DNA from: a virus
Reading direction: 5' to 3' (one strand)
Virus record (IMG/VR): IMGVR_UViG_3300009094_000001
Span: 1-64,000 of that record
Length of the DNA stretch: 64,000 nt
Shown: positions 2,399-53,862 of the stretch, one piece after another
Layout of the letters: the number at the start of each line of letters is the position of its first letter
Numbering within the stretch: position 1 is the first letter of the stretch
The notes under the pieces: generated by a model
What the model saw: the letters and a program-made list of their open reading frames with translations, nothing else
Told to the model about the DNA's origin: nothing
Databases searched by the model: none
Position numbers and translations under genes: made by a program

Positions 2399-2781
2399 AA
2401 AAAGTCTACATCCGGGACGACTGCTGGGAGTTTGACCTGTGGGTAATCGCCCCGGCGACGAACAGGGAGCTGGACGCTTTCCTGCTTCGTCAGTTCGGAA
2501 TCAAAGAGAAGACAAACGACGGAAGCTTTACTGGTCGATTCGTTGAAGTTTGGGAAGGGGACGGAGAAACGGAATGGGCCGGCGTGATTGCGCTCAAGCG
2601 ATGGAACGGAACTCCGAAGGACTACGACATTTTAGCGCACGAGTGTCTGCACGCGGTCCACTGGTTCCTCGATAACCGGGGCATCAAATTGAATTTCAAG
2701 TCCGACGAGGCATTTTGTTACCTGCTCGGCTCGTTGGTGCGCCGCATCGCGGAACAACTCAATAAGGGGAAACGCAAATGA
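2395..2781 (+). CDS. HExxH metallopeptidase-like phage protein
   Basis: ILAHECLHAV followed by DEAFCYL. Confidence 0.65.
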   Translation: MKKVYIRDDCWEFDLWVIAPATNRELDAFLLRQFGIKEKTNDGSFTGRFVEVWEGDGETEWAGVIALKRWNGTPKDYDILAHECLHAVHWFLDNRGIKLNFKSDEAFCYLLGSLVRRIAEQLNKGKRK

Positions 2782-3266
2782 CTGAATACGTCCTCGGCTT
2801 CGCCTTTACCAGAGATTACGCGGACTTTGACCGCGTGCTGTTGATTCGTAAAACCAAGCCCGCGTGGCAGGCCGGGAAACTTAACGGTGTCGGGGGAAAA
2901 ATCGAGACGGGGGATTTCACTCCGCATCGGGCCATATCCCGGGAGTTTGTCGAGGAAACCGGCATAGAGACGCTTCCATCTCGCTGGACTAAATTCGCCG
3001 TCATGGAATTTGCCGATTGCCGGGTCCATTGTTTTACCACTTGGTTCAATTGGAAAGAATTCAAGAAGGCGGTCCCGCTCACTGAGGAGTTGTTGGAGAG
3101 TTACCAGCTCGATTCGGTTTTCGATGAAAAAATGAAGGAAGCGAAAGCGCTTCCAAATTTGAGGTGGCTGATTCTTTTGGCAAGGGCGGCTTGGACTGCT
3201 GGAGTAGACGAGTTCCCAGTGCTACAGATTTTCGAGTCGGTCGAGTCGAAATACGCTACAGCATGA
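2778..3266 (+). CDS. NUDIX hydrolase
   Basis: NUDIX box GGKIETGDFTPHRAISREFVEETGI. Confidence 0.9.
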   Translation: MTEYVLGFAFTRDYADFDRVLLIRKTKPAWQAGKLNGVGGKIETGDFTPHRAISREFVEETGIETLPSRWTKFAVMEFADCRVHCFTTWFNWKEFKKAVPLTEELLESYQLDSVFDEKMKEAKALPNLRWLILLARAAWTAGVDEFPVLQIFESVESKYATA

Positions 3267-3799
3267 AATTCTGGCCCTCCGTTGGAACTCGTTCGGTGCT
3301 TTGGGGTGCTCACGCATTCTGGTTTCACCCGATTGTGGTTGCTCTCGCGTGGCGCAAGCTATATCGGCGATTTCCGAACCGCTGGGAGTGCCTCGCGATT
3401 TTCTGTCACGACCTCGGTTATTGGGGTTGCGACTCGATGGACGGGGACGAGGACGGGAAGTTTCATCCCTATGTCGGGGCCTTTCTCGCCTCGGAGTTGG
3501 CTTTGATTTTCGGAGCCGACGACAGCGATGTAAGCTATGTGGAGGAACTGGTCCTCGGCCATAGCCGGTCCTTTTGCGCCGAATCCGGCGAGAAGATTTC
3601 TGAGCTGTGCGACCCCGACAAGTATTCCATCCTTTACGAGCCCGCGTGGTTCTATTGGATTCGCACGATTTTGAGCGGAGAGATTCACGAGTATCGACGC
3701 AATGAAGAAATCAAACAAGGGTGCTGCATAGCTTCAACGTGGGCTTGGCTATGCGGGTATCGACGGTCCGTAAAAGCCCGCTTCTCCAAAATCAAATGA
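3263..3799 (+). CDS. HD-domain protein
   Basis: H...CHDLGYWG...HP...HS...DK pattern. Confidence 0.7.
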   Translation: MKFWPSVGTRSVLWGAHAFWFHPIVVALAWRKLYRRFPNRWECLAIFCHDLGYWGCDSMDGDEDGKFHPYVGAFLASELALIFGADDSDVSYVEELVLGHSRSFCAESGEKISELCDPDKYSILYEPAWFYWIRTILSGEIHEYRRNEEIKQGCCIASTWAWLCGYRRSVKARFSKIK

Positions 3800-6241: not shown

Positions 6242-7129
6242 ATGAGCGAAAATCTCTCTTCCTATCCATCCATCTTCGCCCTCGGGCACCGGAACATCGC
6301 CGACCTATTCGACGGGCCGGTCACAGTCGAGGAGAAAATCGACGGTTCCCAGTTCAGCATGGCGCGTGTAAACGGCGAGCTGGTTTGCAGGTCGAAGGGC
6401 CAGCAAATCATCGTCGGCGCACCTGAGAAAATGTTTGCCGCCGCAGTCGAGACTGCGCAGAAATTGGACCTGCGCGAGGGCTGGGTTTACCGATGCGAAT
6501 ACCTGAAATCTCCGAAGCACAACACGCTGGCGTATTCCCGGATTCCTAAGGACCATTTGATTTTGTTCGACGTGATGACGGGATACGAGACCTACCTGAC
6601 GCCGGCCGCGAAGAAGTTTGAAGCTGTTCGACTGGGTCTTGAAGTGGTGCCCTGTTTTCTGGTCGGGGAAACCTGCGTGATGGATATCCGCCCATTCATG
6701 GACCGAGAGAGCACTCTCGGCGGATGCAAAATCGAAGGCGTGGTCGTCAAGAACTACGCGCGCTTCGGCACGGATAAGAAAATCCTCATCGGCAAGTTCG
6801 TCTCCGCCGAGTTTAAGGAGAAGCACCAGCACGCGTGGAAGAAATCGAACCCGGGGCCGGCCGACGTGGTGGAGCACATCATTTCCGAGTTGAAGACGGA
6901 CGCTCGCTGGCGCAAAGCCGTGCAGCACCTTCGCGACGCCGGGAAGCTGACCGGGACGCCAACCGATATCGGGCCGTTGTTGATTGAACTCGGCACCGAC
7001 ACGGAGCGGGAAGAGTCCGAAGCAATCCGAGCATCTTTATGGAATCATTTCTGGCCGCAAATTCGGCGCGGAATCGCGAGCGGGTTTCCAGAGTGGTATA
7101 AGAAAGAAATCGGAATTATCGAATCATGA
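6242..7129 (+). CDS. ATP-dependent RNA ligase (Rnl2-like)
   Basis: Motif I EEKIDGSQF, LFDV, EGVVVK motif IV, GKFVSAEFKE motif V. Confidence 0.85.
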   Translation: MSENLSSYPSIFALGHRNIADLFDGPVTVEEKIDGSQFSMARVNGELVCRSKGQQIIVGAPEKMFAAAVETAQKLDLREGWVYRCEYLKSPKHNTLAYSRIPKDHLILFDVMTGYETYLTPAAKKFEAVRLGLEVVPCFLVGETCVMDIRPFMDRESTLGGCKIEGVVVKNYARFGTDKKILIGKFVSAEFKEKHQHAWKKSNPGPADVVEHIISELKTDARWRKAVQHLRDAGKLTGTPTDIGPLLIELGTDTEREESEAIRASLWNHFWPQIRRGIASGFPEWYKKEIGIIES

Positions 7130-9522: not shown

Positions 9523-10014
9523 ATGACACAAATACCTCTCGGCAAAGACGGGAAGTTTTTTACCCTAGTCGATGACCAAGATGTCCCGTTTGTAAAACAA
9601 AACAGGTGGAGCAGACACCGGGGCCGAGGGACTTATTACGCCTCTCGATTGATTCACCGACGGGGAAAGCCCGCAAAAAGAATTTATCTGCATCGAGAGA
9701 TTTTGTGCGCGGGCCGAGGTTTGAAGGTTGACCACCGAGACGGGAATGGATTGAACAACACTCGGGACAATTTACGGACCGCAACAAACTCGCAAAATCA
9801 TCAAGGAAAGATGACTCGCCCGGCCCATTTCAAAAGCAAGTTTCGCGGCGTGTATTGGCATAAGCAGAACAGAAATTGGTGCTCGCAGATTAAGTTTAAT
9901 TACAAGAAGGCGCACCTCGGCTCCTTTTCTAAGGAGGAAGATGCCGCCCGTGCGTATGATTTAACCGCCCGAAAACTCTTTGGCGCGTTCGCTCAGTTGA
10001 ATTTCCCGTCTTGA
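9523..10014 (+). CDS. HNH endonuclease with AP2 domain
   Basis: LHR...VDHRDGNGLNNTRDNLR; SKFRGVYW...AARAYD...FGAFAQLNF. Confidence 0.9.
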   Translation: MTQIPLGKDGKFFTLVDDQDVPFVKQNRWSRHRGRGTYYASRLIHRRGKPAKRIYLHREILCAGRGLKVDHRDGNGLNNTRDNLRTATNSQNHQGKMTRPAHFKSKFRGVYWHKQNRNWCSQIKFNYKKAHLGSFSKEEDAARAYDLTARKLFGAFAQLNFPS

Positions 10015-10038
10015 CATGCGGCTGGCGTGTGGTAGATT
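10011..10038 (+). promoter_or_regulatory. Host sigma70-like promoter (probably leaderless)
   Basis: TTGACA-16-TAGATT with extended TGn; ATG follows 6 nt later. Confidence 0.65.
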
Positions 10039-10044
10039 GGGGTA

Positions 10045-10662
10045 ATGATTATTGAGATAAATCGAGAGGAGTGGTTGCAGCGAGCGGTTCAAAAGCTGCG
10101 CCCCGTGTTTCTTGGGGCGGGGCACACAATTCCAGAACTTCGGGTTTCCGTCGGATGGCCCTCTAAAGGGGGGCTGGCGACAAAAAAGAGGGTTATCGGC
10201 CAGTGTTTTTACGGTCAATGTGCTGCTGACGGCAAGCCCCAGCTTTTCATCTCGCCGCTACTTGAGGAAGTCGGCGACGCAGGCGGGGTGCTGCCGACCC
10301 TCGTCCACGAGGTTTGCCACGTCGCTGCCGGACCCGACGCGAAGCACGGCCCCCGATTCGTTAAGGTGATGAAGGCCCTCGGTCTCACCGGCAAGCCGAC
10401 GGCTACAATTGCCGGCGAGGAGCTGCTGGCAAGGCTGCGCGAGATTTCAACGGAGCTGGGGCCCTTTCCGCACTCCAAGCTGGTTCCAATCAAGGATTAC
10501 AAGCCTCAAAGCACGCGCATGATTAAGTGTGCCTGCGCACAGTGCGGATACCAAATTCGGCTGACTCGGAAGTGGCTTGAAGTCGGAATCCCGGAATGTC
10601 CGGTCGATAACCACGGGGAGCTGGAACAGGAAATCAAATTCAACGAACCGCCAAACGAATGA
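10045..10662 (+). CDS. SprT-like zinc metalloprotease with Zn ribbon
   Basis: LVHEVCH...HGPRF; CxCxxCGY...CP. Confidence 0.8.
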   Translation: MIIEINREEWLQRAVQKLRPVFLGAGHTIPELRVSVGWPSKGGLATKKRVIGQCFYGQCAADGKPQLFISPLLEEVGDAGGVLPTLVHEVCHVAAGPDAKHGPRFVKVMKALGLTGKPTATIAGEELLARLREISTELGPFPHSKLVPIKDYKPQSTRMIKCACAQCGYQIRLTRKWLEVGIPECPVDNHGELEQEIKFNEPPNE

Positions 10663-16644: not shown

Positions 16645-16823
16645 CTCCCGAGAAAGAACTGGTCCTAATCATCAAAGGCGCAATCTCTGAATTGCCCGCC
16701 GCCCAACGCGAAGCTGTCGAAGAGTTGGCAGACCATATTCGCAGGGCGCTTGTGACAGCGGGAGACCCCGTCGCATCTATGGCCCTTGCCCTCGTCGGAG
16801 CAGAAGCAGCAGCCCGAGAGTGA
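16641..16823 (+). CDS. Hypothetical protein
   Basis: Coupled 60-aa helical ORF. Confidence 0.6.
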   Translation: MTPEKELVLIIKGAISELPAAQREAVEELADHIRRALVTAGDPVASMALALVGAEAAARE

Positions 16824-17473
16824 GTATGTCTGAATACTACAAACCAACAGAAGATTTGAGATTTGAGCCGCTGAATGGCGAGGAAGAGCGGGCGCTTTTC
16901 GACGCCGCGCGCTCCGGCTGCGAACACGCGAAGGAATTCATTATCCGAAGCCATCTTCTGTTTGCCGCCAAAGAAGGACGCCGCTGGGCGCGCGGAGGAC
17001 TGCCCGAGGACGAGGTGATATCCGCCGCGAACTTTGCGCTGATGAAAGCTTACGAGGCGTTCGACCACACGCGCGGGAACCGCTTCGCGTCGTTCCTGCG
17101 CCCTTTTATCCGGGGGAGAATCGCGGAACTCTGGCGGGCGCAGAACGTGGTCGGCGAACATCAACGGAAGTTCGTTGACAAGGAAGAACAGCCGGCCGGC
17201 AAGCTTCAAGAGCCGGTGGTTTATCAGGAGGTGGAAAGCGAGGACCACGCACGATTTCTGGAAAAGATGGTCAACGAGGCCAAGCAGGCGGTGCTGACGG
17301 AGAGGGAAAGAATCGTCCTCGACCAACACTTCGGGGCAGGCAAGGAAATGACGAAGATTGCGAAGCAACTCAAGTTAACCCGCGAGCGCATTCGGCAAAT
17401 CAAGGAGTGCGCGCTGCGAAAGCTGAACCGGGAACTGACCTTGCGCATGAAACTTGCGGGGGTGCAGAGATGA
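16820..17473 (+). CDS. Phage sigma-70 family RNA polymerase sigma factor
   Basis: Region 2 ALMKAYEAFDHTRGNRFASF; region 4 LTERER...IAKQLKLTRERIRQI...ALRKL. Confidence 0.92.
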   Translation: MSMSEYYKPTEDLRFEPLNGEEERALFDAARSGCEHAKEFIIRSHLLFAAKEGRRWARGGLPEDEVISAANFALMKAYEAFDHTRGNRFASFLRPFIRGRIAELWRAQNVVGEHQRKFVDKEEQPAGKLQEPVVYQEVESEDHARFLEKMVNEAKQAVLTERERIVLDQHFGAGKEMTKIAKQLKLTRERIRQIKECALRKLNRELTLRMKLAGVQR

Positions 17474-18572: not shown

Positions 18573-19870
18573 ATAAACCTTGGAGCAAATACGAGGACGA
18601 AACAATACGGACGTATTCAAATAACGCGCATGCCGCCAGTGTGCTCGGCCGCACAGAAGCGGCGATACGCGGGCGTCGGCAACGTCTCGGGCTCGTGAAT
18701 CCAAAAAATCCAATCAACGAAAAGGAAGTTGTGTCGGAGACCAAGTTCCAACAGGAGAAAGAATCCACACCCTCAACTTTCGAGGAGGACCTCGACACGA
18801 GTCGAAACGAATACTGGAAGCACCAGTACAAGGCCCTCGAATCGAAATACAAGCAAGCCCTCAAGCAAACTTCCGTCGTTGAACAGCTCGTGGAGCGCGC
18901 GGCAGACCTCGCCCCGCTTTCTTATCAGTGCGCCGCCCCGGAAATCAAGCCCGTGCAACATTCCGGGAACCCGCAATCCGCTGTGTTGCTGTTATCAGAT
19001 ACGCACGTCGGCCAAATCGTCAAGCCGAGTCAAACGCTCGGGCTCGGGCTCTATAATTTCGAGGTGTTCCTTGCGAGGCTCAAATTCGTCGAGGATTCCG
19101 TTCGCAGCATCATCGGAGACCACACCACAACCGAAGTCCCGGAGCTGGTGGTTTGCCTCGGGGGCGATATGTTGCACGGCGCACTGAATCACAGCGCCGA
19201 AGCTGCTCAGCACACCACGCTGTTTTCACAATTTTACGGAGCCGGCCACGCACTCGCGCAGTTCCTTCGCAATCTCGCGCCGATTGTGCCGAAGATTCGC
19301 ATCCAAACCGCCGTTGGAAACCACCCCCGATGGGGGCACCAACACAAGATGCCGACGCACAATCGCTACTCGAATCTTGACCACTTTCTTTACGCCTACG
19401 TGCAGGCGTTGACACGGGAGATTACGTCGATTGAATGGCAGCTCGACATGCAGCCGTTCAGTCTTTTCGACGTTCAGGGATTCCGCTTTCACCTCTCGCA
19501 CGGGGACCACCTTCGCGGCGGAGACAAAGCGCTCGGGATTCCGAATCACGCCGTCGGCCGTATGGTTTCTGCCAACGTGCAGCTCTTCGGAAAGCACGAT
19601 TTGCCGGCCCCGCACTACTACCTGACCGGGCACCTTCACCGCGATATCGCGTTGCCGCATGCACGCGGCAGTTTCATCGTCAACGGCGGGTTCGCCGGCA
19701 TCGATGGATATTCGCTGACGGAGGGATTTTCGCCGGTTGACCCAACGCAGACATTTTTCCTCGTGCATCCGAAATACGGCAGGACCGCAACGTATCCGAT
19801 TCAACTCAAGTTCGCCGAAGTGCAGGAACACCGCCCTTACACGATTCCCGAGGGATATGAAATCAACTAA
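18569..19870 (+). CDS. Calcineurin-like metallophosphoesterase with N-terminal Myb/HTH
   Basis: LSDTH, GGD, GNH, HG and GHLH motifs; N-terminal WSKYED...LGRTEAAI. Confidence 0.85.
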   Translation: MNKPWSKYEDETIRTYSNNAHAASVLGRTEAAIRGRRQRLGLVNPKNPINEKEVVSETKFQQEKESTPSTFEEDLDTSRNEYWKHQYKALESKYKQALKQTSVVEQLVERAADLAPLSYQCAAPEIKPVQHSGNPQSAVLLLSDTHVGQIVKPSQTLGLGLYNFEVFLARLKFVEDSVRSIIGDHTTTEVPELVVCLGGDMLHGALNHSAEAAQHTTLFSQFYGAGHALAQFLRNLAPIVPKIRIQTAVGNHPRWGHQHKMPTHNRYSNLDHFLYAYVQALTREITSIEWQLDMQPFSLFDVQGFRFHLSHGDHLRGGDKALGIPNHAVGRMVSANVQLFGKHDLPAPHYYLTGHLHRDIALPHARGSFIVNGGFAGIDGYSLTEGFSPVDPTQTFFLVHPKYGRTATYPIQLKFAEVQEHRPYTIPEGYEIN

Positions 19871-19878
19871 ACAAAAAA

Positions 19879-20274
19879 ATGAAGTTATTCCACAAAAGCA
19901 AAGACGGGGGTCCAGAGTCCAACGTGACGGGCTACTGGCTTATCGAATGGAAATCGCTATTCAGCATTGCGCTGTTGCGGTTCAGCCACGGGACCCGGGA
20001 GTCCTTCCACAGCCACGCGTTCAACTGCGCGTCCTGGCTGTTGTCGGGACAACTCAACGAGGAATTCAAAAACGGCAACGGTCCGTATTTGATTCACAAG
20101 CCGGGATTCCGGCCAATCATTACGCGCCGGAATCATTTTCACCGCGTGTTCAGTGTGGGAACTTCGTGGGTCCTAACGTTTCGCGGACCGTGGTCAAAGA
20201 CGTGGAACGAGTTTGACCCGCGCACGAACAAAACAATCACCTTGGCCCAGGGGCGGAAAGTGCTGCCCTCCTAA
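19879..20274 (+). CDS. Cupin-like phage protein
   Basis: FHSHAF...G.L.E...FHRV. Confidence 0.6.
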   Translation: MKLFHKSKDGGPESNVTGYWLIEWKSLFSIALLRFSHGTRESFHSHAFNCASWLLSGQLNEEFKNGNGPYLIHKPGFRPIITRRNHFHRVFSVGTSWVLTFRGPWSKTWNEFDPRTNKTITLAQGRKVLPS

Positions 20275-20278
20275 ACTT

Positions 20279-20584
20279 ATGTGGACCCGCGAAACTGCAT
20301 TTCAATTCCTCGAACCGCTCGAAAAATTCCTCGCCGCGAACGGCTATCACTGCGCCCTCGGCGGCGGGGTGATGTATCGAGGTAATTCCGACAAAGACCT
20401 CGACGTTATTGTGTATCCTCACGACCGGGATAACTGCATCTTGGTGGACGTGCTTTGGGAGCGCCTGCACGGCTTTCTATCTCCGCTCAAGTCTTTCAAA
20501 TCCAAAGGAAGCTCCCGCGACAGCAAAGACGTTCGTGTGTTTTACGTATTTCAAGGGCGCATCGATTTCTTTTTCCTGAAATAA
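20279..20584 (+). CDS. Minimal Pol-beta-family nucleotidyltransferase
   Basis: ALGGGVMYRGNSDKDLDVIV followed by RIDFF. Confidence 0.7.
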   Translation: MWTRETAFQFLEPLEKFLAANGYHCALGGGVMYRGNSDKDLDVIVYPHDRDNCILVDVLWERLHGFLSPLKSFKSKGSSRDSKDVRVFYVFQGRIDFFFLK

Positions 20585-20612
20585 TCTCAGGAGCAAACCA
20601 ACCAACCACGAA

Positions 20613-21011
20613 ATGAACAAATACAAAACCCTACTGGCGCTGGCGTCCCTGCTGGCGGTTATTCCTCCGGTGCATGCCGGCGTGAAAGAAATCGGCTCCG
20701 TCAACGGGCTCCGCGTTGTCCGCATCAAGACGGCTGGCGTGTTCTGCCCTAGCACGACGACCATCGTGTGCTACGACCCGAACAAGCCGGGCACCATCGA
20801 AGGCGTCCTCAATTCAGCGGCAGGCCCCGGGTTCGTCCCGGCGGCTGCTAACGCAGGCGGTCTCGTCGGCGCAGCGGCGCTGTTGCGCCCGAACCACACG
20901 ACAGTCAACAACGACGGAGGAAATTCTTCCGCGAATTCGTCGGCTTCTGGTTCCGGCAGCTCCACCACGACCGGCGGAAGCTCTGGCTGGATTCCGCCCG
21001 GACATCGCTAA
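20613..21011 (+). CDS. Secreted/periplasmic hypothetical protein
   Basis: Sec signal peptide (LLALASLLAVIPPVHA); Gly/Ser-rich tail ending IPPGHR. Confidence 0.65.
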   Translation: MNKYKTLLALASLLAVIPPVHAGVKEIGSVNGLRVVRIKTAGVFCPSTTTIVCYDPNKPGTIEGVLNSAAGPGFVPAAANAGGLVGAAALLRPNHTTVNNDGGNSSANSSASGSGSSTTTGGSSGWIPPGHR

Positions 21012-21210
21012 AAGGCATTATGGACAATTTAACCGGCCCATTGACACTTCTTGTTTGCGTCCTAGCTTCCGCCATAATGGCACGCCTGTCGGTCCGTGAA
21101 ATGATTCGAGACGAGGTGGAAAAAGAAGCCCGGCTCACTAAAAACGGAGAGAAGGACTACGGTTCTTTGGCAGACTGGGGGCTCTAAAATTCACTTCGAC
21201 GGAGCGTGAA

Positions 21211-21235
21211 CGCCCCATGACGGGGCGATTTTTTT
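21211..21235 (+). terminator. Rho-independent terminator
   Basis: CGCCCC-ATGAC-GGGGCG followed by ATTTTTTT. Confidence 0.75.
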
Positions 21236-21237
21236 AC

Positions 21238-21265
21238 TTGACGGGGCGGTTTTCTGTAGTAAATT
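21238..21265 (+). promoter_or_regulatory. sigma70-like promoter for the ncRNA
   Basis: TTGACG-16-TAAATT immediately after the terminator. Confidence 0.6.
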
Positions 21266-21271
21266 GATGGC

Positions 21272-21495
21272 GTCGGGCAAGTATCAGAGATGCCGCGAGC
21301 CGTCCTCGGAAGAGTGACCTGAGACTGAGATGGGCGCTGCGAACCCCCGACTGTCGGTTCAAAGGCGCACATGCCGGGAAACGTTCCCGGAATTAGGATA
21401 GGATATCTACTTGCGCGTTTACGGCTGGAAGCCGTCGCGTCACGGAGGATTGGGAGATGCTATCGAGGGACGTGTGCCCCTTTGAGCCGACACCA
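21272..21495 (+). ncRNA. Unclassified about 224-nt structured RNA with 3' ACCA
   Basis: Lies in a gap with no + strand ORF and has its own promoter. Terminal stem GUCGG/CCGAC plus ACCA; nested long-range helices and several hairpins. Confidence 0.65.
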
Positions 21496-21509
21496 ACTAT
21501 AACAAAAAC

Positions 21510-21962
21510 ATGAGAACTGAACTTACTGACAAAGCCAGAGATTTCGCAGTGGAAGCCCACCGTGGACAATTTCGCAGAAACCGAACTACTCCCTATATTC
21601 TCCATCCAGCGCGCGTCGCAAAACACCTAGCTTCTAGGGGCGAGTCAGAAAACGTGGTTGCGGCAGCGTGGCTGCATGACGTTCTTGAAGACACACAGAC
21701 CACCGAGATTTTCCTTCGGTCCGCTGGTTTCCCGGACCGGGTTATTCAAGCCGTCGTTGCCCTTTCCAAACGCAAGGGCGAGAATTACGACGAATATTTG
21801 TCCCGGGTGATGTTTGATGCCATCGCCCGCAAGGTTAAAATCGCCGATATCCTTGACAACATCTCGGATTCCCCTACCCCCGGCCAGATTTCTCGCTACG
21901 CCAAAGCCCTGAACTTCCTCGTCAACCACCCCGGGGCCAAAAATTCACCGATTCCCGAATAA
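21510..21962 (+). CDS. RelA/SpoT-type HD hydrolase (small alarmone hydrolase/Mesh1-like)
   Basis: AHRGQFR...PYILHP...AAWLHDVLEDT...VKIADILDN. Confidence 0.9.
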   Translation: MRTELTDKARDFAVEAHRGQFRRNRTTPYILHPARVAKHLASRGESENVVAAAWLHDVLEDTQTTEIFLRSAGFPDRVIQAVVALSKRKGENYDEYLSRVMFDAIARKVKIADILDNISDSPTPGQISRYAKALNFLVNHPGAKNSPIPE

Positions 21963-21968
21963 AATTAC

Positions 21969-21997
21969 TTGACAGACCGCCCCGGACCGTGTAATTT
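21969..21997 (+). promoter_or_regulatory. sigma70-like promoter (probably leaderless)
   Basis: TTGACA-17-TAATTT; ATG 22004 follows 6 nt later. Confidence 0.65.
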
Positions 21998-22003
21998 AAC
22001 GCC

Positions 22004-22914
22004 ATGAGCAAAACGAATCTCGTGGCAATTGAGGGAAATACTTACAGAGTCAGGGAACAACTCAAGGCACTCGGCGCGCGTTGGAACGGCGCAAACCGGT
22101 GCTGGATGATTTCGGCCGAGCGCGCGGACGAAGCCCGGGCTATCGTCATCGGCAAACCCGAACCCAAGCCGGCTGTCCAAAAGGCGGACACTAACTGGTC
22201 CGACGAACAGAAGGCGATTTTCGCGTGGTTTGCCTCGGGGACCGGCAATCTTATCGTGCAGGCGTATGCTGGCACCGGCAAAACCACCACCATCAAGGAG
22301 GCTTTCACGCACGCGCCCGAGGAGGGCCGGCTGCTTTACGCGGTGTTCAACAAGAAGAACCAGCGCGAGGCGCAGGAGAAAATCACAGACCCCCGCGTGG
22401 ATGTTCGCACGCTGCACTCCCTCGGGTATTTCTTCATCAAGAACGTCTGGCGCGACGCGAAGCCGGATGACTTCGTGGAAACGGACCGCCTCGTCGCCAT
22501 TGACCCGACCCTGCCCGAGGAGGTTTCCTCGCAGGTGCTCAAGCTCGTCGGATTCTGCAAAAACCTCACGACCGGGATTCCTGAACTGAACGCCGTCCTC
22601 GAAATTGCCGACGCGCGCAACATCTCCGTGCCCGATGACATGGAGCGCGATTTTCCCCCGGCCCGAGTTGCGTCCCTCGCGATTGAAGTGCTCAAGCAAT
22701 CGCTGATTAAGGACCGCTCTGGCCGGGTTTCTTTCAACGACATGGTGTGGTTGCCCGTCGCCGCCGGCTGGGTGAAGCCGACCTTTTCGCTCGTGGTGGT
22801 TGACGAGGCCCAAGACATGAACATGCCCCAGCTCATGATGGCGGAGCGCGCGTGTAAACGACGAGGGCCAAAAAGGTGCTCGTCCGCGCGTGCGGAAAGG
22901 CGGGTGCAGAATGA
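22004..22914 (+). pseudogene. UvrD/Rep-like SF1 helicase with internal deletion and frameshift
   Basis: Motif I AYAGTGKT, TLHS and motif II VVDEAQD are present; motifs III-V are absent. The motif VI remnant TTRAKKVLV..GAE* is in another frame at 22858-22914. Confidence 0.75.
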
Positions 22915-23180
22915 GAAATATCGACATTGCGAAAACCTACATCAAGCACGGAGAAGACTGGTTCTTCGTGTCCACCATCAATCGGGAGTCCTCTGCGGCG
23001 ATTATTCCGTCATCGTGGTATGCCGAAACGATTGTTTGGAGCACCAATGTTGCCGGGGAGAGGCAGGAACTTCTTTGGCAGGGCGACGCCTATTTCGACA
23101 GCATCAAGACTCACCAGCGCGTTGTCGAGGCGCTACACGCTAAGGGTGCGGAGGGACTTAAAGGACCGGACGACGAATGA
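22911..23180 (+). CDS. Hypothetical protein
   Basis: ATGA overlaps on both sides; FFVST...YAETIVW...H. Confidence 0.65.
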   Translation: MRNIDIAKTYIKHGEDWFFVSTINRESSAAIIPSSWYAETIVWSTNVAGERQELLWQGDAYFDSIKTHQRVVEALHAKGAEGLKGPDDE

Positions 23181-24310: not shown

Positions 24311-24466
24311 TTAAGGTCCAGTTTTTTGCTCGCCGGTCAAGGAAAGCGTTTCGTCCTCTTGCGGGTCGGCTGGCGGAAGTATCGCCCGCGCGCCCGAGAG
24401 TAAGAGTTCCATTTCCTCGGGGGATAGCCCGAGGTCTTCGAGTTCAATTGCCTTTTTCGGGGACAT
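24311..24466 (-). CDS. Small acidic hypothetical protein
   Basis: MSPKKAIELEDLGLSPEE...; fills the gap between genes. Confidence 0.45.
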   Translation of the reverse strand: MSPKKAIELEDLGLSPEEMELLLSGARAILPPADPQEDETLSLTGEQKTGP

Positions 24467-27400
24467 AAGAGGTCTCCTGTTTGAAAGTGATTCGTTGGTT
24501 GCCCGGGGAGTCTGCCGGCACGATGCGCGCGTCGGTGAATCCCTCGGATTCGATGAAAGATTGTGCTTCCGCCCGGGTATCAAAAATAGCCGGCTTCGTC
24601 CCGCCGATGAATTCGGTAGCCCAATAGCCCCTCGTCGTGGGGCCGATTCGAGACGGGCGCTCCACGCGAACACGAGCGCGCGGTTGTATTTCTCCCGGCA
24701 AAAATTGCGTTAACTTTTTCACACCAGCAATTTCGCCCGTTTTCGGCGCAACCGCAACTTTTTTCTTTTGGATTTTCGGCTCCTCTTTTAGCTGGAATTT
24801 CCCCGGGCCGACCTTCTCCGTTTTGGCGAAGAACGTGTTGAAATCCGACTTCTCGGCCGCAGCGACGTTCTCTCCTTTCAGCCAGCCCTGTTTTTGCCAG
24901 TGGTCCTTTTCCGCGAACCACAAAATTGCTTGCAGCGCATCCGGCTGGATTCCCACCTTTTCGGCGGCATGACGAAAAGCCTTCTGGCCGAACTCAAAAT
25001 CGGCGTCAGTAACACCGGTCTCGCTCTCGGGGAGAATTCTCCATCGCTTGCCGGGTTGCTCTGCGCCCATGCGATGTAACGCACGAGCTGCCCAGATATC
25101 AATCGTCGCCTCGAACGTGTCGCCGGTAAGGTTGCCCATGAAGTTCGGAGTCTTCGGTCCGACAACTTCCTCAAGCCAGCTACCGTCGAGAACACGCAGC
25201 AAAGGCTTACTGTGCATGCCGTATCGTAGCGGCTTGCCCTCGGGATTTTTCTCCGAACGATAGGGGGTCAGCTCATTCTTCTCAATCCACCAGTTCAGGA
25301 AATGTCCGCGAGTTGCCTGCTTGACTTTCGGCCCGGTTAATTTCTTGCCCGTGTCGTCGAGATATTCTTGAATATCGCCAGTTGCCCACTTCTGTTTCCC
25401 CTCGCGATATTTTTTGAGGATATCATCGAACGCACCCGCCTTGAACTGATTGTAGGCGTCGAGTGCGTATTTGAAATTCTGTTTTACATCCGTCTGCGGA
25501 GACGTTGCGCCGAGCAGCTCCGCAAAAAGCTTGCTGTCGTCGCCGAAAAGTTCCACCAGTTTTTTGCGCGCGAGCGAATACCACGTAACGCCGGACGAGA
25601 TTTCCGGGATATCCTTGATGCTGTTGTAATACTCCGCCAGCTTGTCGCCAAGCGCGGTAGCAGCCGCTTCGGTTGCCGCCTTACCTTCTTTTCCCTTGGA
25701 CGCTTGCTTCGCTAGCTGTGTATCCGCAAAGTTGTAAACCTCAAGCTGACGACCGAGCTGCCCGCCATAAACAACCTTCGGCGAGCCGTCGTCGTTATAC
25801 ACGAACTGCGGAATTTTCGCCTCGGGGAATTTGATTTCCGCGTTGTCTTGGACTTCCTTGATGAAGGCTTTTTGTTCCTTCGGCGTCATTTCTGCAACCG
25901 GCAGGAACGCCCCTCGCAAAGACTCAACCCCCTCAGAAATTTTCCCTGCACGTTCGGCACCCTCCACGTCGAACAAACTCGTGCGGAACGAATCCACGAC
26001 TTGTCCCTTGTCATTCAGCAGTGAAACCGAAAGCCGGTCGATGCTGTCCTCTTGGTCTAGGAGTTGGTCAAGGATAGCTTTGCGCTGTTTCCCCCAGTGC
26101 TTCGCATTCACCTCGACGTGCGCTTCTCCCGTGCCCGACTCGTAACGGATGCGCGAAAACCCGGCGTTGAGTGCCGCTAGGCGTTCCTCCACGTCAGGGC
26201 TATCAGAAAACTTCGTGCCGAATTTCTTGTTGAGGTTCGTCGAGTTCTCGGCGAGGTATTGTTCGTGATACGATTGCGACAGCGGGACAAATTCCTTGTT
26301 CGGCAGCACCCATCCAGTGAGCTTCGTTTCCGTTTTCTTGGGTTCAACGTTGTATTTCGAGAAGTCCACCTTCTCCAAATCCCGCTTCGGCTTGCGCGGG
26401 AGGAACTCCGGCTCTTGACCGGGGATGTTCGGCTTTTCGATAATAACTTCCCCGTCGTAAGTAACCGACTTGTTAGCGCGAAACGCGATATCCTCGGCTG
26501 TCTGTCGTGCGATTCGACTCAGCTCCGCCGTTCCGTTTAGGTAGACCTTGTTGAGAGTATCATTCACTCCTCGAATCCAGCCGGAGGATTCCATCTGGTC
26601 GTAAATCTGGGCGGCATCCGAACCGGAAGGAACTCCGCCTAGGTCGCGCGCAGCTTCGACATGTCCTTCGGGGGCGAGCAACACCTTGCCGGTTTCTGCG
26701 TTCAGCCAAAATTGCGGCGTCGTTCCTTTCGTTCGGATGAAATCTGCACTCATCGCAGAGATTCGTCCCTGTTCAGGGGTTTCCAGATACCGAGGAAGTT
26801 CTTCCACCGGCTCTGCTTTCCTGCGAGGCAAAAACTCCACGCCCTCGCTGGGGAACGGCGGCTTGTAATCCGGGTTTACGTATTTCCGAATCATCCCCGT
26901 CTTGCCGCCCTCTCCGGTCGCTGCCTCGATTGCCTCTTGGAAGAACTGGGCCTTGATGGAGCTGGCCCCGGCTGCGTCTATATCTCCCTTCGCGATGTCC
27001 TCTTTGAAGGTTGCGCGCTGCTCTCTTGCAAGCTCTCGGAGAGTTTCAATATCAGCGAGAGATTTAACATTCTCCCCGATTTCATATGCCTTAAGAGTGA
27101 GGCTTTTTCCCCACTCTTTAATTTTGGCTTGAAACCCCGGCACGTCGAGGTTTCGTAAGTCGTCCCCGATTTGTTGAATTGACTGTTCATTGGGTAAAAA
27201 TCCGCCGCGAATCACGTCCGTAACCGGGGCTTTGAAATTCAGGTCCGTCCTAGGCTTCACGCTCGCGATATCTTTCGCGCGGATACGCTCCGTCACGTCG
27301 AGAAGTTCTCGCACGCTGACTCCCCGCGCGGACAGCTCGTTTCGCAGCGGGTTGACCTCTTTGAGGGACCGGCCCGGAAAAGATTTGAAAGCCTGCTTGC

Positions 27401-30400
27401 CGACGTTGCGCGGCTTGATAACGGACGGCGTTAACAGTTCGCGCTTGTTCAGCTCCGCGAGAATCTGGCCCTTGACGTTGCCGGGAGTCTTCCCGCGAAT
27501 TTCGCGCGCGGTCTCCGGCGTTGCGAGTCCCTGCACGAGGTTCGCGAAGTTCGCGACCTCCGGCGTTAGCTGCGTCGGAACGTAATCCTTATTCTCGGCC
27601 GGAATGGAAAGCTCGCCCTCCGTCGGCCGGGTCAACCGTTGCCCATCACCGCGAAAACCGTTTGCTTGATTTTCGGTATACGCCTGCACATCTGCCAAAG
27701 CTTTTCGCCACGCGGCGTCGGTCAGCTTGCCGTTGACGACCTCGTAAGGTAAAAGCGACTCCGCTTTCTTTTCGGACGCGAGTTTCGCAATCTGGTGGAG
27801 GTTTGAAATCACCTTGTCGGACGACATGGCGATAAGAGTCGGGGTGCCGCCCTGCTCTGTCCACCGCACTGGCACAAAGGTTTTCTGGTGAAGGTTGACG
27901 ATGTCTGCCGGGGCGTTAGCCCGATTTTCGACGCGTAATCGTTCCAGCTCCGCGTATCCGGCGGCTTGCGCGCCGCGCCGGGGCGTGCGGCCTGTCGGTG
28001 CTGCCGGGGTGCCTGTATCCGCAATCCCGAGATGCTCGATTTCGAGGACCGGGTTGCCAGCTTCCATCTGGGCGGAGATAGCGTTTACACGCTCAGTGAC
28101 GGTCGGGTCGGCGTCCTTGGCAGCGAGTGCCTTGGCTTCCGTAACGCCCGTTTCTGCCGCGCGCTGCGCTAGGGCGTCCTGCTGGGCCTTGGTGACGCGT
28201 ATATTGCGCGCTGGCGGAGCCGGGGCGGCGCTGGGGGGCGTTGGAGCGGCGGGAGCGGCTGCCGGCGGCGTGGGGGCGGCGGGCTGCGATTCTGGGGCAT
28301 TGGCTAACAGCTCCCGAGCAGCACCTTCAAACTGAGCCCGTAATTTCTGGGTCAACGGCACGTTCAGGTCAGGGCTGGTGCGCCCTTGTGTCACGTCCGC
28401 GCCGAGGACTTCCCCCACCTGCGCGAGGACGCTTCCGACGGAGCGTAGGAATCCCGCCGGGGCCTTAAGCTGGCTCACCGGCACGTTGTTGAACACCGCG
28501 TTGAAATTCTCGGCAATCAGCTCGTCAATGAACTTGGCTTCCGAAATCGGGCTGCCAAGTCGAGATTCGTATTGCGCCTTGAGCTGCGCGAGCTGGTCCG
28601 GTGCATAGTTCGCGCGCACGGATTCCGCGAGCGCGTTTTTCGTCTGGTCCGGGAGCAGCGCATACGTGAGGTGCCCGGACTCGTGCCAGAGAGCGTTGGA
28701 ATCTGCATTCAGCAGGACCACCTTGCGCCCGTCCGGCCGTTCAAAATCGAAATAGCCTTGGGCGTCAATTTTCCCTTGGATGCCCGCGAGTTCGTCGGCT
28801 GTTGGGGTTCGCCCGAGCTGCTCCGTTAGCTGCCCAATGATTTGGTTTGCAAAGGTCGTCTTGTCTACCGAGTAAATCTCACCGCCGAGCGGGCGAAAAA
28901 TCTCCCGGGCGGTAGTCACATCTCCCTGCTCGTTGACGGAGCGCTTTACTAAGTTGGCCTTGTGCGCGGCGTCGAGAGTTGCATCGACACCGTAGTCAGG
29001 GCTGTTGACCGGCTCGAACTTCGTCGAGTGCGGGTCGAAAAAGGTTTTCGCCGCCAGCTCTCCGCCGACGCGCGCGACTCCGTGAACCCCGCCGCCGACT
29101 GCGCCGAGCCCGAGACCGCCGCCGAGAATTGCGCCGGCCTGTTCCGAGCCTTCCGCTGCGGCTGCAAGAGGCAAAGACACCCCTGCGCCGATAGCTGCGC
29201 CCTTGAGCGGGCTGGTGAACAACGGGGCCGCAAGCCGCGTTCCTTCGACAATACTGGCGAGCGCAGGGGACAGCGGGGCCTTGCCCGAGACTTGCTGCCC
29301 AAAATTCTGGATTGCCTCGCCGGCCCGAGCGAGTTTCGGCGCGAGACGTTCGCCCGCATAAATTCCGGCAATCGTGCCGAAGGGCCCGCCCTTGACGGTT
29401 CCCACCACCGCGCCGGTTGTCGGGGCAGTTTTCCCCGCGAGCGAAACTGCCCTGCCTGCGACTTCAATCGGCTTGCCGACGACCGCTCGCGCCGACGGGA
29501 GAGATTCAAGCACGGGCTTGATTGCAGTCCCAAGTTTGTCCGCTAGTTTGATTCCGGCTTGCACGGACGGAACCGTGGCGAGGACCTTCCCGCCCTTGCC
29601 GATGAGATTGAATCCAAGCTTGCCGACGCCGCCGGTAGCGACAAGCGTCAAAGGGTCCACCAGAGACATGTTCTCGATGGCACTGGGGTCGAGGGTGATT
29701 CCCTCCTTCGCGAGTTCGTCCGCGTCGAGTCCGACGCCGCGCAGCAATTCGCCCCGGCCTTCGGTAGTTTCCCGAAGCTTGGTTTGAAAAGCTGCATCGG
29801 TGGAAAGCTCTTGTAGCAACTCTTGGTCGGTTTGTTCCTCTACGGACTTCCCGAAAATTTTCCTCGCCCCGGCCCTTGCGAGGTCTGCGATTCCAGTAGC
29901 CGAAGTTTCAGTTGCGGCAAGTGCCTTGGCTTGGGCCTCGGTGGATTGCCGGAGCCCTTCCGTCTGCAACTCCCGTTTCACCTGCGGGGATTCAAAAGAC
30001 CCGAGAATAGTATTCGCGAGGTCCTGCAATCCCGTTAACACAAAAAGATTTGAGGCGGTCTGATACGCGCCTTGGGCGAACTTTCCGACTGTTGGGATGG
30101 CGGACTTAGCCGCCGCCTTTAATGTTTCGCCGACTTGAATTCCCTCCGCGCGACGGGAGCGGTAAGCCGCTAGAAGTTTTCGTAGACTCTCTGGGTTGCT
30201 AGCAATGTTGGGATTGCTCGCAAAAAAGTCTGTGGGGTTGAACTCTTTGTCGGCGGCGAGTTCTTCTGGGGTTTTAGTGGCGATGTCCTCGGTCGAAAAT
30301 AACTTCGTAAAAGGCTGATTCGCATTGAAGGCGGCTCTGGGAGTTCCTGACGACGTTGTCGCGTCGGGAATCACCTCGAAAGGTTGGTCGGGATTAAACG

Positions 30401-30512
30401 CCGGCTTTGCGGGGACTGCTGACGCCGCCGGAGTAGCCGACTCCGTCACCTGAGTAAAGGGCAGGCTAGGATTAAACTGGGGCGGCAGCGCCGGCAATGG
30501 ATAGTCGGCCAT
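24444..30512 (-). CDS. Large polyvalent internal-virion/ejection protein (2022 aa)
   Basis: N-terminal FNPxQPF repeats, Gly/Ala-rich membrane-like region, WHESGH metallopeptidase motif, FLP-delimited modules and a C-terminal WY...ATSPQ...N...TIDIW domain. Confidence 0.8.
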   Translation of the reverse strand: MADYPLPALPPQFNPSLPFTQVTESATPAASAVPAKPAFNPDQPFEVIPDATTSSGTPRAAFNANQPFTKLFSTEDIATKTPEELAADKEFNPTDFFASNPNIASNPESLRKLLAAYRSRRAEGIQVGETLKAAAKSAIPTVGKFAQGAYQTASNLFVLTGLQDLANTILGSFESPQVKRELQTEGLRQSTEAQAKALAATETSATGIADLARAGARKIFGKSVEEQTDQELLQELSTDAAFQTKLRETTEGRGELLRGVGLDADELAKEGITLDPSAIENMSLVDPLTLVATGGVGKLGFNLIGKGGKVLATVPSVQAGIKLADKLGTAIKPVLESLPSARAVVGKPIEVAGRAVSLAGKTAPTTGAVVGTVKGGPFGTIAGIYAGERLAPKLARAGEAIQNFGQQVSGKAPLSPALASIVEGTRLAAPLFTSPLKGAAIGAGVSLPLAAAAEGSEQAGAILGGGLGLGAVGGGVHGVARVGGELAAKTFFDPHSTKFEPVNSPDYGVDATLDAAHKANLVKRSVNEQGDVTTAREIFRPLGGEIYSVDKTTFANQIIGQLTEQLGRTPTADELAGIQGKIDAQGYFDFERPDGRKVVLLNADSNALWHESGHLTYALLPDQTKNALAESVRANYAPDQLAQLKAQYESRLGSPISEAKFIDELIAENFNAVFNNVPVSQLKAPAGFLRSVGSVLAQVGEVLGADVTQGRTSPDLNVPLTQKLRAQFEGAARELLANAPESQPAAPTPPAAAPAAPTPPSAAPAPPARNIRVTKAQQDALAQRAAETGVTEAKALAAKDADPTVTERVNAISAQMEAGNPVLEIEHLGIADTGTPAAPTGRTPRRGAQAAGYAELERLRVENRANAPADIVNLHQKTFVPVRWTEQGGTPTLIAMSSDKVISNLHQIAKLASEKKAESLLPYEVVNGKLTDAAWRKALADVQAYTENQANGFRGDGQRLTRPTEGELSIPAENKDYVPTQLTPEVANFANLVQGLATPETAREIRGKTPGNVKGQILAELNKRELLTPSVIKPRNVGKQAFKSFPGRSLKEVNPLRNELSARGVSVRELLDVTERIRAKDIASVKPRTDLNFKAPVTDVIRGGFLPNEQSIQQIGDDLRNLDVPGFQAKIKEWGKSLTLKAYEIGENVKSLADIETLRELAREQRATFKEDIAKGDIDAAGASSIKAQFFQEAIEAATGEGGKTGMIRKYVNPDYKPPFPSEGVEFLPRRKAEPVEELPRYLETPEQGRISAMSADFIRTKGTTPQFWLNAETGKVLLAPEGHVEAARDLGGVPSGSDAAQIYDQMESSGWIRGVNDTLNKVYLNGTAELSRIARQTAEDIAFRANKSVTYDGEVIIEKPNIPGQEPEFLPRKPKRDLEKVDFSKYNVEPKKTETKLTGWVLPNKEFVPLSQSYHEQYLAENSTNLNKKFGTKFSDSPDVEERLAALNAGFSRIRYESGTGEAHVEVNAKHWGKQRKAILDQLLDQEDSIDRLSVSLLNDKGQVVDSFRTSLFDVEGAERAGKISEGVESLRGAFLPVAEMTPKEQKAFIKEVQDNAEIKFPEAKIPQFVYNDDGSPKVVYGGQLGRQLEVYNFADTQLAKQASKGKEGKAATEAAATALGDKLAEYYNSIKDIPEISSGVTWYSLARKKLVELFGDDSKLFAELLGATSPQTDVKQNFKYALDAYNQFKAGAFDDILKKYREGKQKWATGDIQEYLDDTGKKLTGPKVKQATRGHFLNWWIEKNELTPYRSEKNPEGKPLRYGMHSKPLLRVLDGSWLEEVVGPKTPNFMGNLTGDTFEATIDIWAARALHRMGAEQPGKRWRILPESETGVTDADFEFGQKAFRHAAEKVGIQPDALQAILWFAEKDHWQKQGWLKGENVAAAEKSDFNTFFAKTEKVGPGKFQLKEEPKIQKKKVAVAPKTGEIAGVKKLTQFLPGEIQPRARVRVERPSRIGPTTRGYWATEFIGGTKPAIFDTRAEAQSFIESEGFTDARIVPADSPGNQRITFKQETSYVPEKGN

Positions 30513-41150: not shown

Positions 41151-41369
41151 TTAAAAATTACGCCAGTCGTCGTAGATGAATCCGGCCGTTAGCTCGTCCA
41201 AAATCGGAGCGCCGAACTCGTCCTGCAAAATCTGCGGGTCGTTGTTCAAAAACCGTTGCGGCGGTAACTCGTGCCGAATCCGATGCGCCTCTTTGATGCC
41301 GGCCTTCGGCGGGCAGCAACAGTCGGAGAATTCTCCGTTGATGTCGCGGATTATCGGATAGGGCGTCAT
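41151..41369 (-). CDS. Small hypothetical virion protein
   Basis: Coupled; ILQDE.G.PILDE motif. Confidence 0.6.
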   Translation of the reverse strand: MTPYPIIRDINGEFSDCCCPPKAGIKEAHRIRHELPPQRFLNNDPQILQDEFGAPILDELTAGFIYDDWRNF

Positions 41370-42511: not shown

Positions 42512-42512
42512 A

Positions 42513-43064
42513 TTATTGCTTGGAATCGTCGATTCCGTCTTTGTTCGCATCGACGAATCCACGGAGTTTCCCGTGGCGATTCGCAAACCAATACAGCACG
42601 GCGGCACCGATGCATGCGCCGAGAATCAAAAGCTCGTTTCCGACAATCAGCGTCGGGAGCACAATCAACGCAAGGCCCGCGAGAGTAATCACCGCACTGG
42701 TCGTCACGCTGGCTCCGACGAGAAGTTTCAGCGGAGGATAGACAAAGCTGGCCGCGCCGAACAGGAACACCAGCACGCCAATCCACGACACCCCGCGCAA
42801 AGACGAAAGCTTGGCGGCAACTTCGCGCCCCGTGTCTTTCTGAGCAGCGCCGAGGACCGTGTTGATTTCTTCGGTCGTTTTTCCATCTTTGGTCTCCTGC
42901 GTTCGTTTGTAAACCTGCGTAGTCCCTGTCTTCGGATTCTGCGACTGTTTCGTAGTGACGGTTGTTCCGTCCGGGGATTTGTAAGAAACGCGCCCGGGTT
43001 TCAGCGGCGCAAAGGAGCAGCCGGAAATTGCTGCAATTAAAAGGATGAGGGGTAAACTTTTCAT
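42513..43064 (-). CDS. Lipoprotein with C-terminal membrane helices (possible spanin/lysis accessory)
   Basis: Lipobox-like ISGC after a signal peptide; about 3 hydrophobic segments; DANKDGIDD. Confidence 0.55.
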   Translation of the reverse strand: MKSLPLILLIAAISGCSFAPLKPGRVSYKSPDGTTVTTKQSQNPKTGTTQVYKRTQETKDGKTTEEINTVLGAAQKDTGREVAAKLSSLRGVSWIGVLVFLFGAASFVYPPLKLLVGASVTTSAVITLAGLALIVLPTLIVGNELLILGACIGAAVLYWFANRHGKLRGFVDANKDGIDDSKQ

Positions 43065-53861: not shown

Positions 53862-53862
53862 G

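Follow-up and report, generated by a model that had tools for sequence, protein, structure and literature searches.

The window analysed here comprises bases 1-64,000 of the 72,578-bp IMG/VR virus record IMGVR_UViG_3300009094_000001, which belongs to a soil phage, has direct terminal repeats and is rated complete. On its + strand, between a 55-codon open reading frame (ORF; 21020-21187) and a 150-codon HD-domain gene (21510-21962), lies a region that, judged from sequence and predicted folding, encodes a real, conserved, structured and largely non-coding RNA of no described family. In the favoured model this RNA consists of two separate, side-by-side three-way-junction modules, D1 and D2. The reading we prefer, at somewhat less than an even chance, is that the two modules make up a portable, cis-acting, structured 5' leader of a promoter-driven unit of the moron type, which now feeds an alarmone hydrolase gene; the evidence for such a leader is suggestive, not decisive. 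A modular leader is a better description than the tRNA-like RNA put forward in an original prediction made from the letters of this DNA, and it would represent a new RNA family.

Two folded modules and their variants

Folded as one 224-nt RNA, the + strand reaches -94.7 kcal/mol (z -3.46; 2 of 200 shuffles as good) and the minus strand -81.6 kcal/mol (z -2.22). D1 (21272-21351, +) is an 80-nt three-way junction composed of a closing stem (21272-77/21346-51), a hairpin (21281-93) and a long hairpin (21294-21341), whereby the closing stem, GUCGGG/CCCGAC, has a pair probability of 0.99. D2 (21352-21492, +) is a 141-nt three-way junction whose closing helix (21352-73/21471-92) comprises 14 bp, a one-base bulge and 7 bp, with pair probabilities of 0.98-0.99, and encloses the hairpin P2 (21374-90) and the long imperfect hairpin P3 (21397-21464). 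The distal hairpin of P3 (21412-21445, +) is variable and presents a GGA in its loop (21427-29). Folded alone, D2 reaches -66.9 kcal/mol (z -5.38), a value matched by none of 200 shuffles.

The original prediction had assigned the RNA a single nested, global fold. All eight of the complementary word pairs that it named are present at the places given, as is the alternative GCAAGUA/UACUUGC pairing that it took to be a switch, and its local hairpins at 21374-90 and 21421-35 appear in the predicted ensemble. By contrast, its six long-range helices (R1-R6) have a mean pair probability of 0.0000, and the nested fold reaches only -47.5 kcal/mol, compared with -94.7 kcal/mol for the best fold.

Nine of the twelve public sequencing runs listed contain at least part of 20600-22000, and none of them is an RNA run. 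The comparison below draws on four of these runs, from three other studies, and on soil and sediment phage-like contigs assembled from them (labelled X4, X5, X7 and X9). The X4 contig (31,409 bp), together with X5 pieces from the same study, matches 21353-22086 with 61 differences, and in X4 174 other letters replace 21013-21352. X4 thus has D2 and the hydrolase gene without the window's promoter and D1. In X7, a 400-nt contig matches only 21280-21348 (13 differences, no gaps; 56 of 69 positions alike), with the flanks ...GAAUGGGAC before and AUUCCAAAC... after, while a second X7 contig holds 21352-71 (no differences) and 21459-90 (one difference) around 82 different letters. X9 matches 21231-21411, which spans the promoter, D1 and the start of D2 (14 differences), as well as 21422-21490, and its sequence upstream of the first match is unrelated and that downstream of the second is different. 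Other contigs' matches start at 21352/21353, after different upstream sequence. A constant context for the RNA is thus not borne out, as X7 and X9 have other sequence after D2 and the two modules are found apart.

The variants reveal compensatory changes in both modules. In X7 the D1 closing stem GUCGGG/CCCGAC is replaced by AAUGGG/CCCAUU, which keeps all six pairs, three of them through changes to both partners, and leaves room for a seventh, G-C pair; unrelated flanks would yield three consecutive pairs with a chance of ~(6/16)^3 = 0.05 (hand arithmetic). In D2 the X4/X5 differences cluster at 21412-21440 (13 substitutions and one 1-nt deletion), and at most two fall in each of 21365-21411 and 21441-21492 (hand count). 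Five of the six affected pairs in the distal hairpin are kept, three by double changes (21414-39, C-G to U-A; 21422-34, C-G to U-A; 21426-30, U-A to G-C) and two by one-sided changes (G.U or U.G to G-C or C-G); the sixth is lost beside the deletion. A simulation of this compensation gave P ~0.001 when places and bases were both random and 0.04 when only the bases were. In a third variant, from an X7 contig, small indels in the distal hairpin turn ACGGC/GCCGU into CUGGC/GCCAG (by reading), and the loop GGA at 21427-29 is retained in all variant hairpins while the stem changes. As sequence evidence, these comparisons support the view that D1 and D2 are two autonomous, structurally constrained modules.

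The original prediction had seen no + strand ORF in this region. A 43-codon ATG frame (21371-21502) and an 18-codon frame headed by GGAGGA (21457-21513) do exist there, but the RNA core is non-coding, since in other contigs indels of 1 and 2 nt lie within the 43-codon frame, which they break, and within a 77-codon frame on the minus strand. A protein reading of the core was rejected on the same grounds, and the 43-codon frame has no PHROG match.

These results bear directly on the original reading of all 224 nt as a tRNA mimic, in which an acceptor-like helix with a free ACCA would serve as a decoy against toxSAS or stringent-response defences. Its attraction is that GUCGG (21272-76) is complementary to CCGAC (21487-91), after which comes ACCA, that the neighbouring gene encodes an alarmone hydrolase and that the phage has RNA ligase and tRNA-Lys genes; toxSAS enzymes target tRNA CCA ends, according to the available part of PMC11559606. 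The mimic is nonetheless contradicted on three defining points, and we regard it as scarcely credible. The end helix has a probability of 0.0000 in a fold 47 kcal/mol worse than the best, and the 5' GUCGGG pairs locally with 21346-51, not with 21487-91, a pairing that X7 preserves through three double changes. Nor is the ACCA conserved: position 21493 is T in X4/X5 (ACCA to AUCA), and the likeness to X7 and X9 ends at 21490. Moreover, neither Rfam at E up to 10 nor ARAGORN yields a tRNA, tmRNA (transfer-messenger RNA) or T-loop match, and the RNA is absent from 160 hydrolase-bearing loci. The contig comparison contradicts both the 5'/3' acceptor-like helix and a conserved CCA end. The proposed switch fares no better, as its pairing needs D1, which is absent from the X4 contig.

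A different objection to an RNA is that D2 might be a DNA-level palindromic mobile element resembling a miniature inverted-repeat transposable element (MITE), or a recombination 'linker' between phage modules, and its fold a by-product of inverted ends. The two 20-nt ends (21352-71 and 21473-92) are indeed alike at 18 of 20 positions (90%) and are kept around the different 82-letter interior in X7, the flanks vary among contigs, the D2 minus strand folds well too (-55.9 kcal/mol, z -4.90), and the element sits in a hypervariable slot between exonuclease-like and helicase genes that holds HNH-AP2 endonuclease genes in relatives. We nevertheless consider such an element improbable. D2 is present in one copy in the 72,578-bp record, and neither the window nor the X7 flanks show a direct repeat of the flanking sequence. 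The compensatory changes of the interior hairpin would be needless for a passive palindrome, and the D1 closing stem preserves its pairing rather than its sequence, the opposite of what terminal repeats show. In addition, 9 of the 78 predicted pairs on the + strand are G.U, and the minus-strand D2 is 11 kcal/mol weaker than its + strand counterpart, which together favour a + strand RNA over a mere DNA palindrome.

Searches for described relatives agree with the original prediction that the RNA belongs to no known family. An Rfam scan of the whole window at gathering score found only the tRNA-Lys (57267-57336), and at E up to 10 the interval 21100-21600 gave a single 13.3-bit noise match and no tRNA-clan, tmRNA or riboswitch match (including ppGpp/PRPP, ykkC subtype 2); the Csr/Rsm family models did not match the RNA region at either threshold. 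ARAGORN called no tRNA or tmRNA at the RNA region and only the tRNA-Lys at 57264-57336. Resemblances to hammerhead, signal recognition particle, 6S, Y-RNA, retron and put-like RNAs were considered and rejected, having no model match or partner gene; no reverse transcriptase was found in the 47 ORFs scanned against Pfam, a set that excludes the 2022-codon ORF at 24444-30512 and many small ORFs.

At the nucleotide level, blastn gave no match to the RNA among INPHARED phages or PLSDB plasmids. Exact and gapped patterns drawn from D2 (its 5' end, its centre, its 3' end and both ends) and from the ends of D1 had no match in IMG/VR, nor did a 20-mer in JGI metagenome contigs or two 20-mers in GTDB genomes, although such blank scans do not establish absence because exact patterns find near-identical DNA only. 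The RNA was not found by nhmmer and blastn over 80 and then 166 loci, and single-sequence covariance models of D2 and D1 (models R1 and R2), run over 165 loci and the window, had a best foreign match of 20 bits (E 0.22), which was taken as noise. The 165 loci comprise 160 that bear a hydrolase gene (80 viral and 80 metagenomic, at most 56% identical) and five from phage relatives, and the RNA is absent from the whole records of those five relatives. In the portions of the literature returned by full-text searches, no paper surfaced on RNAs lying upstream of alarmone hydrolase genes in phages or on Csr-type RNAs encoded by phages. The available part of PMC10690425 describes 8,495 candidate structured RNAs from IMG/VR 3.0, for which matches to at least three regions were required; a single-copy element of IMG/VR would fall short of that requirement, although the supplementary alignments of that survey may yet contain a relative.

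The architecture of D1 also raises the possibility of an orphan riboswitch, in which D1 would be a ligand-sensing aptamer, D2 the expression platform and a pairing of 21334-45 with 21356-68 the competitor of both folds. In support of this, D1 lies close to the promoter and is an 80-nt three-way junction whose core is conserved (56 of 69 positions in X7), its closing stem covaries and the sequence downstream of it varies; the bridging helices GCGC/GCGC and GAACC/GGUUC also exist. However, these bridging helices have a pair probability of 0.0000, D2 occurs without D1 (X4) and D1 without D2 (X7), no Rfam riboswitch model matches, the fold of D1 is no better than that of shuffles, and the class of the downstream gene is inconsistent. 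A riboswitch of this design is quite unlikely.

Promoter, short frame and alarmone hydrolase gene

Upstream of D1, an intrinsic-terminator-like hairpin and T run (21211-21235, +) closes the unit of the 55-codon ORF; its stem, CGCCCC/GGGGCG (21211-27), has six G-C pairs and a loop of 5 and is followed by ATTTTTTTAC. The sigma70-type promoter TTGACG-16-TAAATT (21238-21265, +), recovered by a consensus scan, comes next, so that both signals named in the original prediction are present. That prediction had also noted an ATG placed 6 nt past the -10 box at other promoters. The pattern TTGAC-N15-19-TANNNT-N6-ATG occurs six times in the window, compared with 0.04 expected, and 0 of 100 shuffles reach six; this excess over chance indicates that the 6-nt rule is correct and that the phage makes leaderless mRNAs. 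The six sites are located at 10011-10047, 21969-22006 and 60722-60759 (+) and at 55583-55618, 57466-57502 and 58080-58117 (-). TTGAC-N15-19-TAAWTT occurs three times in the window (0.29 expected), and one of the loci from phage relatives (those named here being L082, L083, L085 and L086), L082, has the identical leaderless layout before its helicase gene.

By the spacing of this leaderless class, transcription is predicted to start near G21272. The consensus scan found no terminator-like site on the + strand at 21266-21962, and the unit is bounded by the next promoter, TTGACA-17-TAATTT (21969-21997, +), a leaderless one that serves the helicase gene (ATG 22004). A minus-strand RNA driven by a TGnTATAGT-like extended -10 word (21495-21503, -) was rejected, as the word is not retained in the X7/X9 flanks and the G.U pairs favour the + strand. 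Antisense transcription from that word would begin at ~21489, where D2 has its 3' edge; the word is probably a chance occurrence in A/T-rich sequence.

Within D2, a Shine-Dalgarno-like GGAGGA (21444-21449, +) stands 7 nt (21450-21456) before ATG 21457, which opens the 18-codon frame MLSRDVCPFEPTPTITKT (21457-21513, +). The TGA of this frame (21511-13) overlaps the hydrolase ATG at 21510 (ATGA), and the frame probably represents what is left of another gene. In X7 and X9 the flanks past 21490 are alike at 19 of 30 positions (hand count) and contain no stop in the short frame, the X7 string being a two-contig consensus with an agreement of 0.65, and 6 of the 11 differences between them fall at codon position 3 of that frame (hand count). 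With low confidence, these flanks suggest that in X7 and X9 ATG 21457 opens a real, longer gene. Equally tentatively, 21490 may be a recombination joint in the window/X4 lineage at which the original gene body was replaced by the hydrolase cassette; the D2 closing helix would then perhaps pair a leader segment with codons 6-12 of the ATG 21457 gene.

The gene that follows (21510-21962, +) is, as the original prediction held, of the RelA/SpoT type: its 150-residue, single-domain HD product is a small alarmone hydrolase, predicted to be of the (p)ppApp/(p)ppGpp type. The protein matches PF13328 (E 2e-9, 37.8 bits against a cut-off of 27.2) and phrog_990 (E 3e-46), and its best solved relative is PDB 7smg, a '(p)ppApp hydrolase' of 149 aa (E 6e-20, residues 4-121), followed by Rel/SpoT, MESH1 and small alarmone hydrolase chains. 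Its start has neither a Shine-Dalgarno-like word nor a leaderless promoter and lies in open, A-rich RNA with a predicted opening cost of 1.6 kcal/mol.

The HD protein has 111 confirmed homologues in IMG/VR (best 56% identical) and 450 in metagenomes (best 55%). The RNA was found upstream of 0 of 160 hydrolase-bearing loci (nhmmer/blastn; models R1 and R2 at E below 0.1), and the pairing of RNA and hydrolase is common only to the near-identical X4/X5 contigs. The functional tie to alarmone hydrolases that had been proposed is thus not supported by synteny. What stands of the novel phage RNA in the original prediction is a conserved, structured RNA of an undescribed family, with a promoter of a real class and no terminator before the hydrolase gene; its tRNA-like character does not.

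A hypervariable slot in the genome

Among the products of the + strand genes up to ~24 kb are a NUDIX hydrolase, two helicases (DEAD-type and UvrD-like), an RNA ligase, a family A DNA polymerase, a sigma-70-family protein and an exonuclease-like protein. Five small genes and the RNA lie between the exonuclease-like gene and the UvrD-like helicase gene (19870-22000). The nearest phage relatives, with helicase or exonuclease-like proteins 65-71% identical, are without the RNA/hydrolase segment. In L082 the exonuclease-like gene leads to the helicase gene in ~270 nt (L082:1201-1475), and L083 (3148-4000) and L086 (2585-4008) carry HNH-AP2 homing-endonuclease-like genes in the interval. As the relatives differ in content between these two genes, the RNA and the hydrolase gene occupy a hypervariable accessory slot.

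The equivalent slot of L085 (IMGVR_UViG_3300010401_000640) contains a 490-nt ORF-free gap (3043-3530), after a homologue of the window gene at 20613-21011, with a TTGACA-16-TAAAGT promoter and two tRNA-like pieces. The first (3148-3245) scores 22.9 bits (E 0.038) with the tRNA-Sec model and has the stem GGGACGG/CCGUCCC and the loop GGUUCGAAGCC; the second (3455-3517) scores 20.2 bits and reads GGGUUCGAUUCCC, then ...GCCGGCCA. Both were left uncalled by ARAGORN and by Rfam at gathering score. The UvrD-like helicase gene of the window (22004-23143) is truncated, with only residues 1-327 of the 550-aa L085 homologue aligning (22004-22960); its C-terminal half is absent across the window by tblastn, and the genes of relatives have 546-551 codons.

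Elsewhere, the phage carries a tRNA-Lys(UUU) gene (57264-57336, -), ~130 nt upstream of which lies the leaderless-type promoter at 57466-57502 (-), and an RNA ligase gene (6242-7129, +; PF09414, E 9e-15). Together, a tRNA-Lys gene and an RNA ligase are reminiscent of tRNA repair against anticodon nucleases. The NUDIX hydrolase gene lies at 2778-3266 (+) and that of the phage's own sigma-70-family protein at 16820-17473 (+). Accessory genes for sugar metabolism on the minus strand (52905-53987, 55298-56383 and 61487-63229) encode two NAD-dependent epimerase/dehydratase-family proteins and a GlmS-like glutamine-fructose-6-phosphate aminotransferase, the latter giving no usable pointer to the host, and three presumed structural proteins (39961-41148, 41366-42607 and 58202-59080) have collagen-like repeats.

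Models of function and known systems

In the favoured reading of D1 and D2 as a 5' leader, transcription would start near 21272 from a phage-typical sigma70-type promoter. D1 would form at the extreme 5' end, with its closing stem beginning at +1, and D2 would form next, its 21-bp closing helix pairing a segment of the 5' leader with the first codons of the GGAGGA-bearing short frame. Since no terminator intervenes, the transcript is expected to run on into the hydrolase gene, and the short frame would deliver ribosomes to the hydrolase ATG that overlaps its stop. The most likely role of the leader is to govern how stable the downstream cistron is and how it is processed and translated: D1 would be a protective or sensing module at the 5' terminus, and D2 would serve as an operator or as a hairpin for processing. 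RNase III could plausibly cut a helix of 21 bp, and a stem at the 5' terminus could plausibly act as a stabiliser. The modules would be portable, as they precede other sequence in other soil and sediment phage-like contigs, and in the window lineage the original gene body may have been swapped for the hydrolase gene at 21490.

Several points weigh against this reading. D1 alone is no more stable than its shuffles (z -0.71; 53 of 200 as good). A Shine-Dalgarno-like word occurs at -15..-5 in 8 of 58 other ORF starts (59 starts having been hand-picked), and most of the others are without one and lie in A-rich RNA; because most genes of the phage are leaderless or lack such a word, the use of GGAGGA by the host is conjectural. 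The predicted opening costs of GGAGGA and the ATG are 1.4 and 2.0 kcal/mol, and that of the whole initiation region 6.6 kcal/mol, so weak a sequestration of GGAGGA and ATG that simple occlusion of the short frame is not established. The ATGA overlap is expected by chance in about one-third of frames, and the case for an ATG 21457 gene is weak, drawing on 30 letters with one flank a two-contig consensus. The ends of the transcript, its start included, and its co-transcription with the hydrolase gene are inferred. The covariation comes from single low-depth metagenome contigs of three studies, compared through difference tables and 30-letter flanks. Finally, the element is rare or recent, given that the INPHARED, PLSDB, IMG/VR, JGI and GTDB searches returned no homologue.

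Because D1 and D2 are found apart and in other contexts, they behave as units in their own right, and this would also suit a stand-alone, trans-acting small RNA or RNA pair, for example a decoy or sponge for a host RNA-binding protein, with the hydrolase gene merely downstream and the cassette's own 3' part lost. The D1 closing stem begins at the predicted +1, D2 is very stable (z -5.38) and rich in GGA with its loop GGA kept in variants, and L085 has promoter-driven tRNA-like RNAs in the same slot. Yet no terminator or other 3'-end signal precedes the hydrolase gene, and the 3' strand of the D2 closing helix coincides with the GGAGGA-led frame, which apparently continues as a gene in X7 and X9. 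The GGA argument is further tempered by the pairing of most of these motifs, by the failure of Csr/Rsm models to match, by the lack of a CsrA gene in the phage and by a count made after the sequence had been viewed. A trans-acting RNA is the main rival to the leader, a real but minority possibility.

The GGA content of D2 itself is only a lead. D2 has 9 GGA in 141 nt, compared with a shuffle mean of 4.2; none of 2000 shuffles reaches 9, and 0.13% of the 141-nt tiles of the window do, in what is a post hoc count. In the predicted ensemble, two of the nine are fully unpaired (21427 in the loop and 21468 in the junction) and three are about half exposed. A long shot that would use this feature is that D2 is a GGA-motif RNA engaging a CsrA/Rsm-type (or other GGA-binding) regulator of the host, as a sponge or as a CsrA-gated leader, that D1 is a separate, reusable sensor or protective module, and that plug-in leaders of this kind are exchanged among soil phages in the manner of protein-coding morons. 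If so, a single early transcript of the phage would both titrate or read a host regulator of carbon storage and translation and supply a hydrolase that erases the stringent response.

Non-coding RNAs of phages are poorly charted. If the leader reading is correct, phages trade elaborate RNA modules as independent parts and set them before different cargo genes, here one for an enzyme that removes stress alarmones of the host. It would offer a handle on how phages time and tune counter-stress and counter-defence genes in hosts that use mostly leaderless or Shine-Dalgarno-free translation, and one or two new RNA families for structural and for ligand or partner searches. If it is false, the region would be an ordinary recombination scar with a strong palindrome.

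Among known systems, MITEs share with D2 its terminal inverted repeats, while the several copies and target-site duplication of such elements were not found in the searches described above. The T4 species 1 and 2 RNAs are examples of small stable RNAs encoded by phages. Candidates with tRNA-like features have been reported from IMG/VR, according to the available part of PMC10690425. The element resembles these small stable and tRNA-like RNAs in being promoter-driven, non-coding, structured and situated in an accessory region, the same slot that holds the tRNA-like pieces of L085. D1 and D2 differ from phage tRNA-like RNAs, however, in having no T-loop, cloverleaf or conserved CCA.

The Csr/Rsm RNAs (CsrB, CsrC, RsmY and RsmZ) and CsrA-repressed leaders offer a second comparison, based on a high GGA density and on a conserved loop GGA carried by a covarying stem. 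A second GGA overlaps GGAGGA, 17-20 nt downstream of the loop GGA, a spacing that suits a CsrA dimer. By contrast with the Csr/Rsm RNAs, D2 matches no family model, most of its GGA are at least partly paired, it has no terminator of its own (21266-21962) and the phage has no CsrA gene.

Structured 5' leaders and operators of early or accessory phage genes include the lambda N and cIII leaders with their RNase III sites and the T4 translational operators, and the ompA leader carries a stabiliser hairpin. The D1/D2 element is like these in its promoter-proximal position, its stem formed from the 5' end, its 21-bp helix upstream of and across a start region and its short frame abutting the next start. 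It departs from them in matching no described leader by sequence or model, in three-way junctions far larger than a stabiliser needs and in modules that are shuffled between contexts. With moron cassettes, in which a promoter, a gene and a terminator are inserted between core genes, it shares an upstream terminator, its own promoter, a variable position, absence from the nearest relatives and accessory cargo. What sets it apart from these cassettes is that the long leader is the best-conserved part and is common to other cargo.

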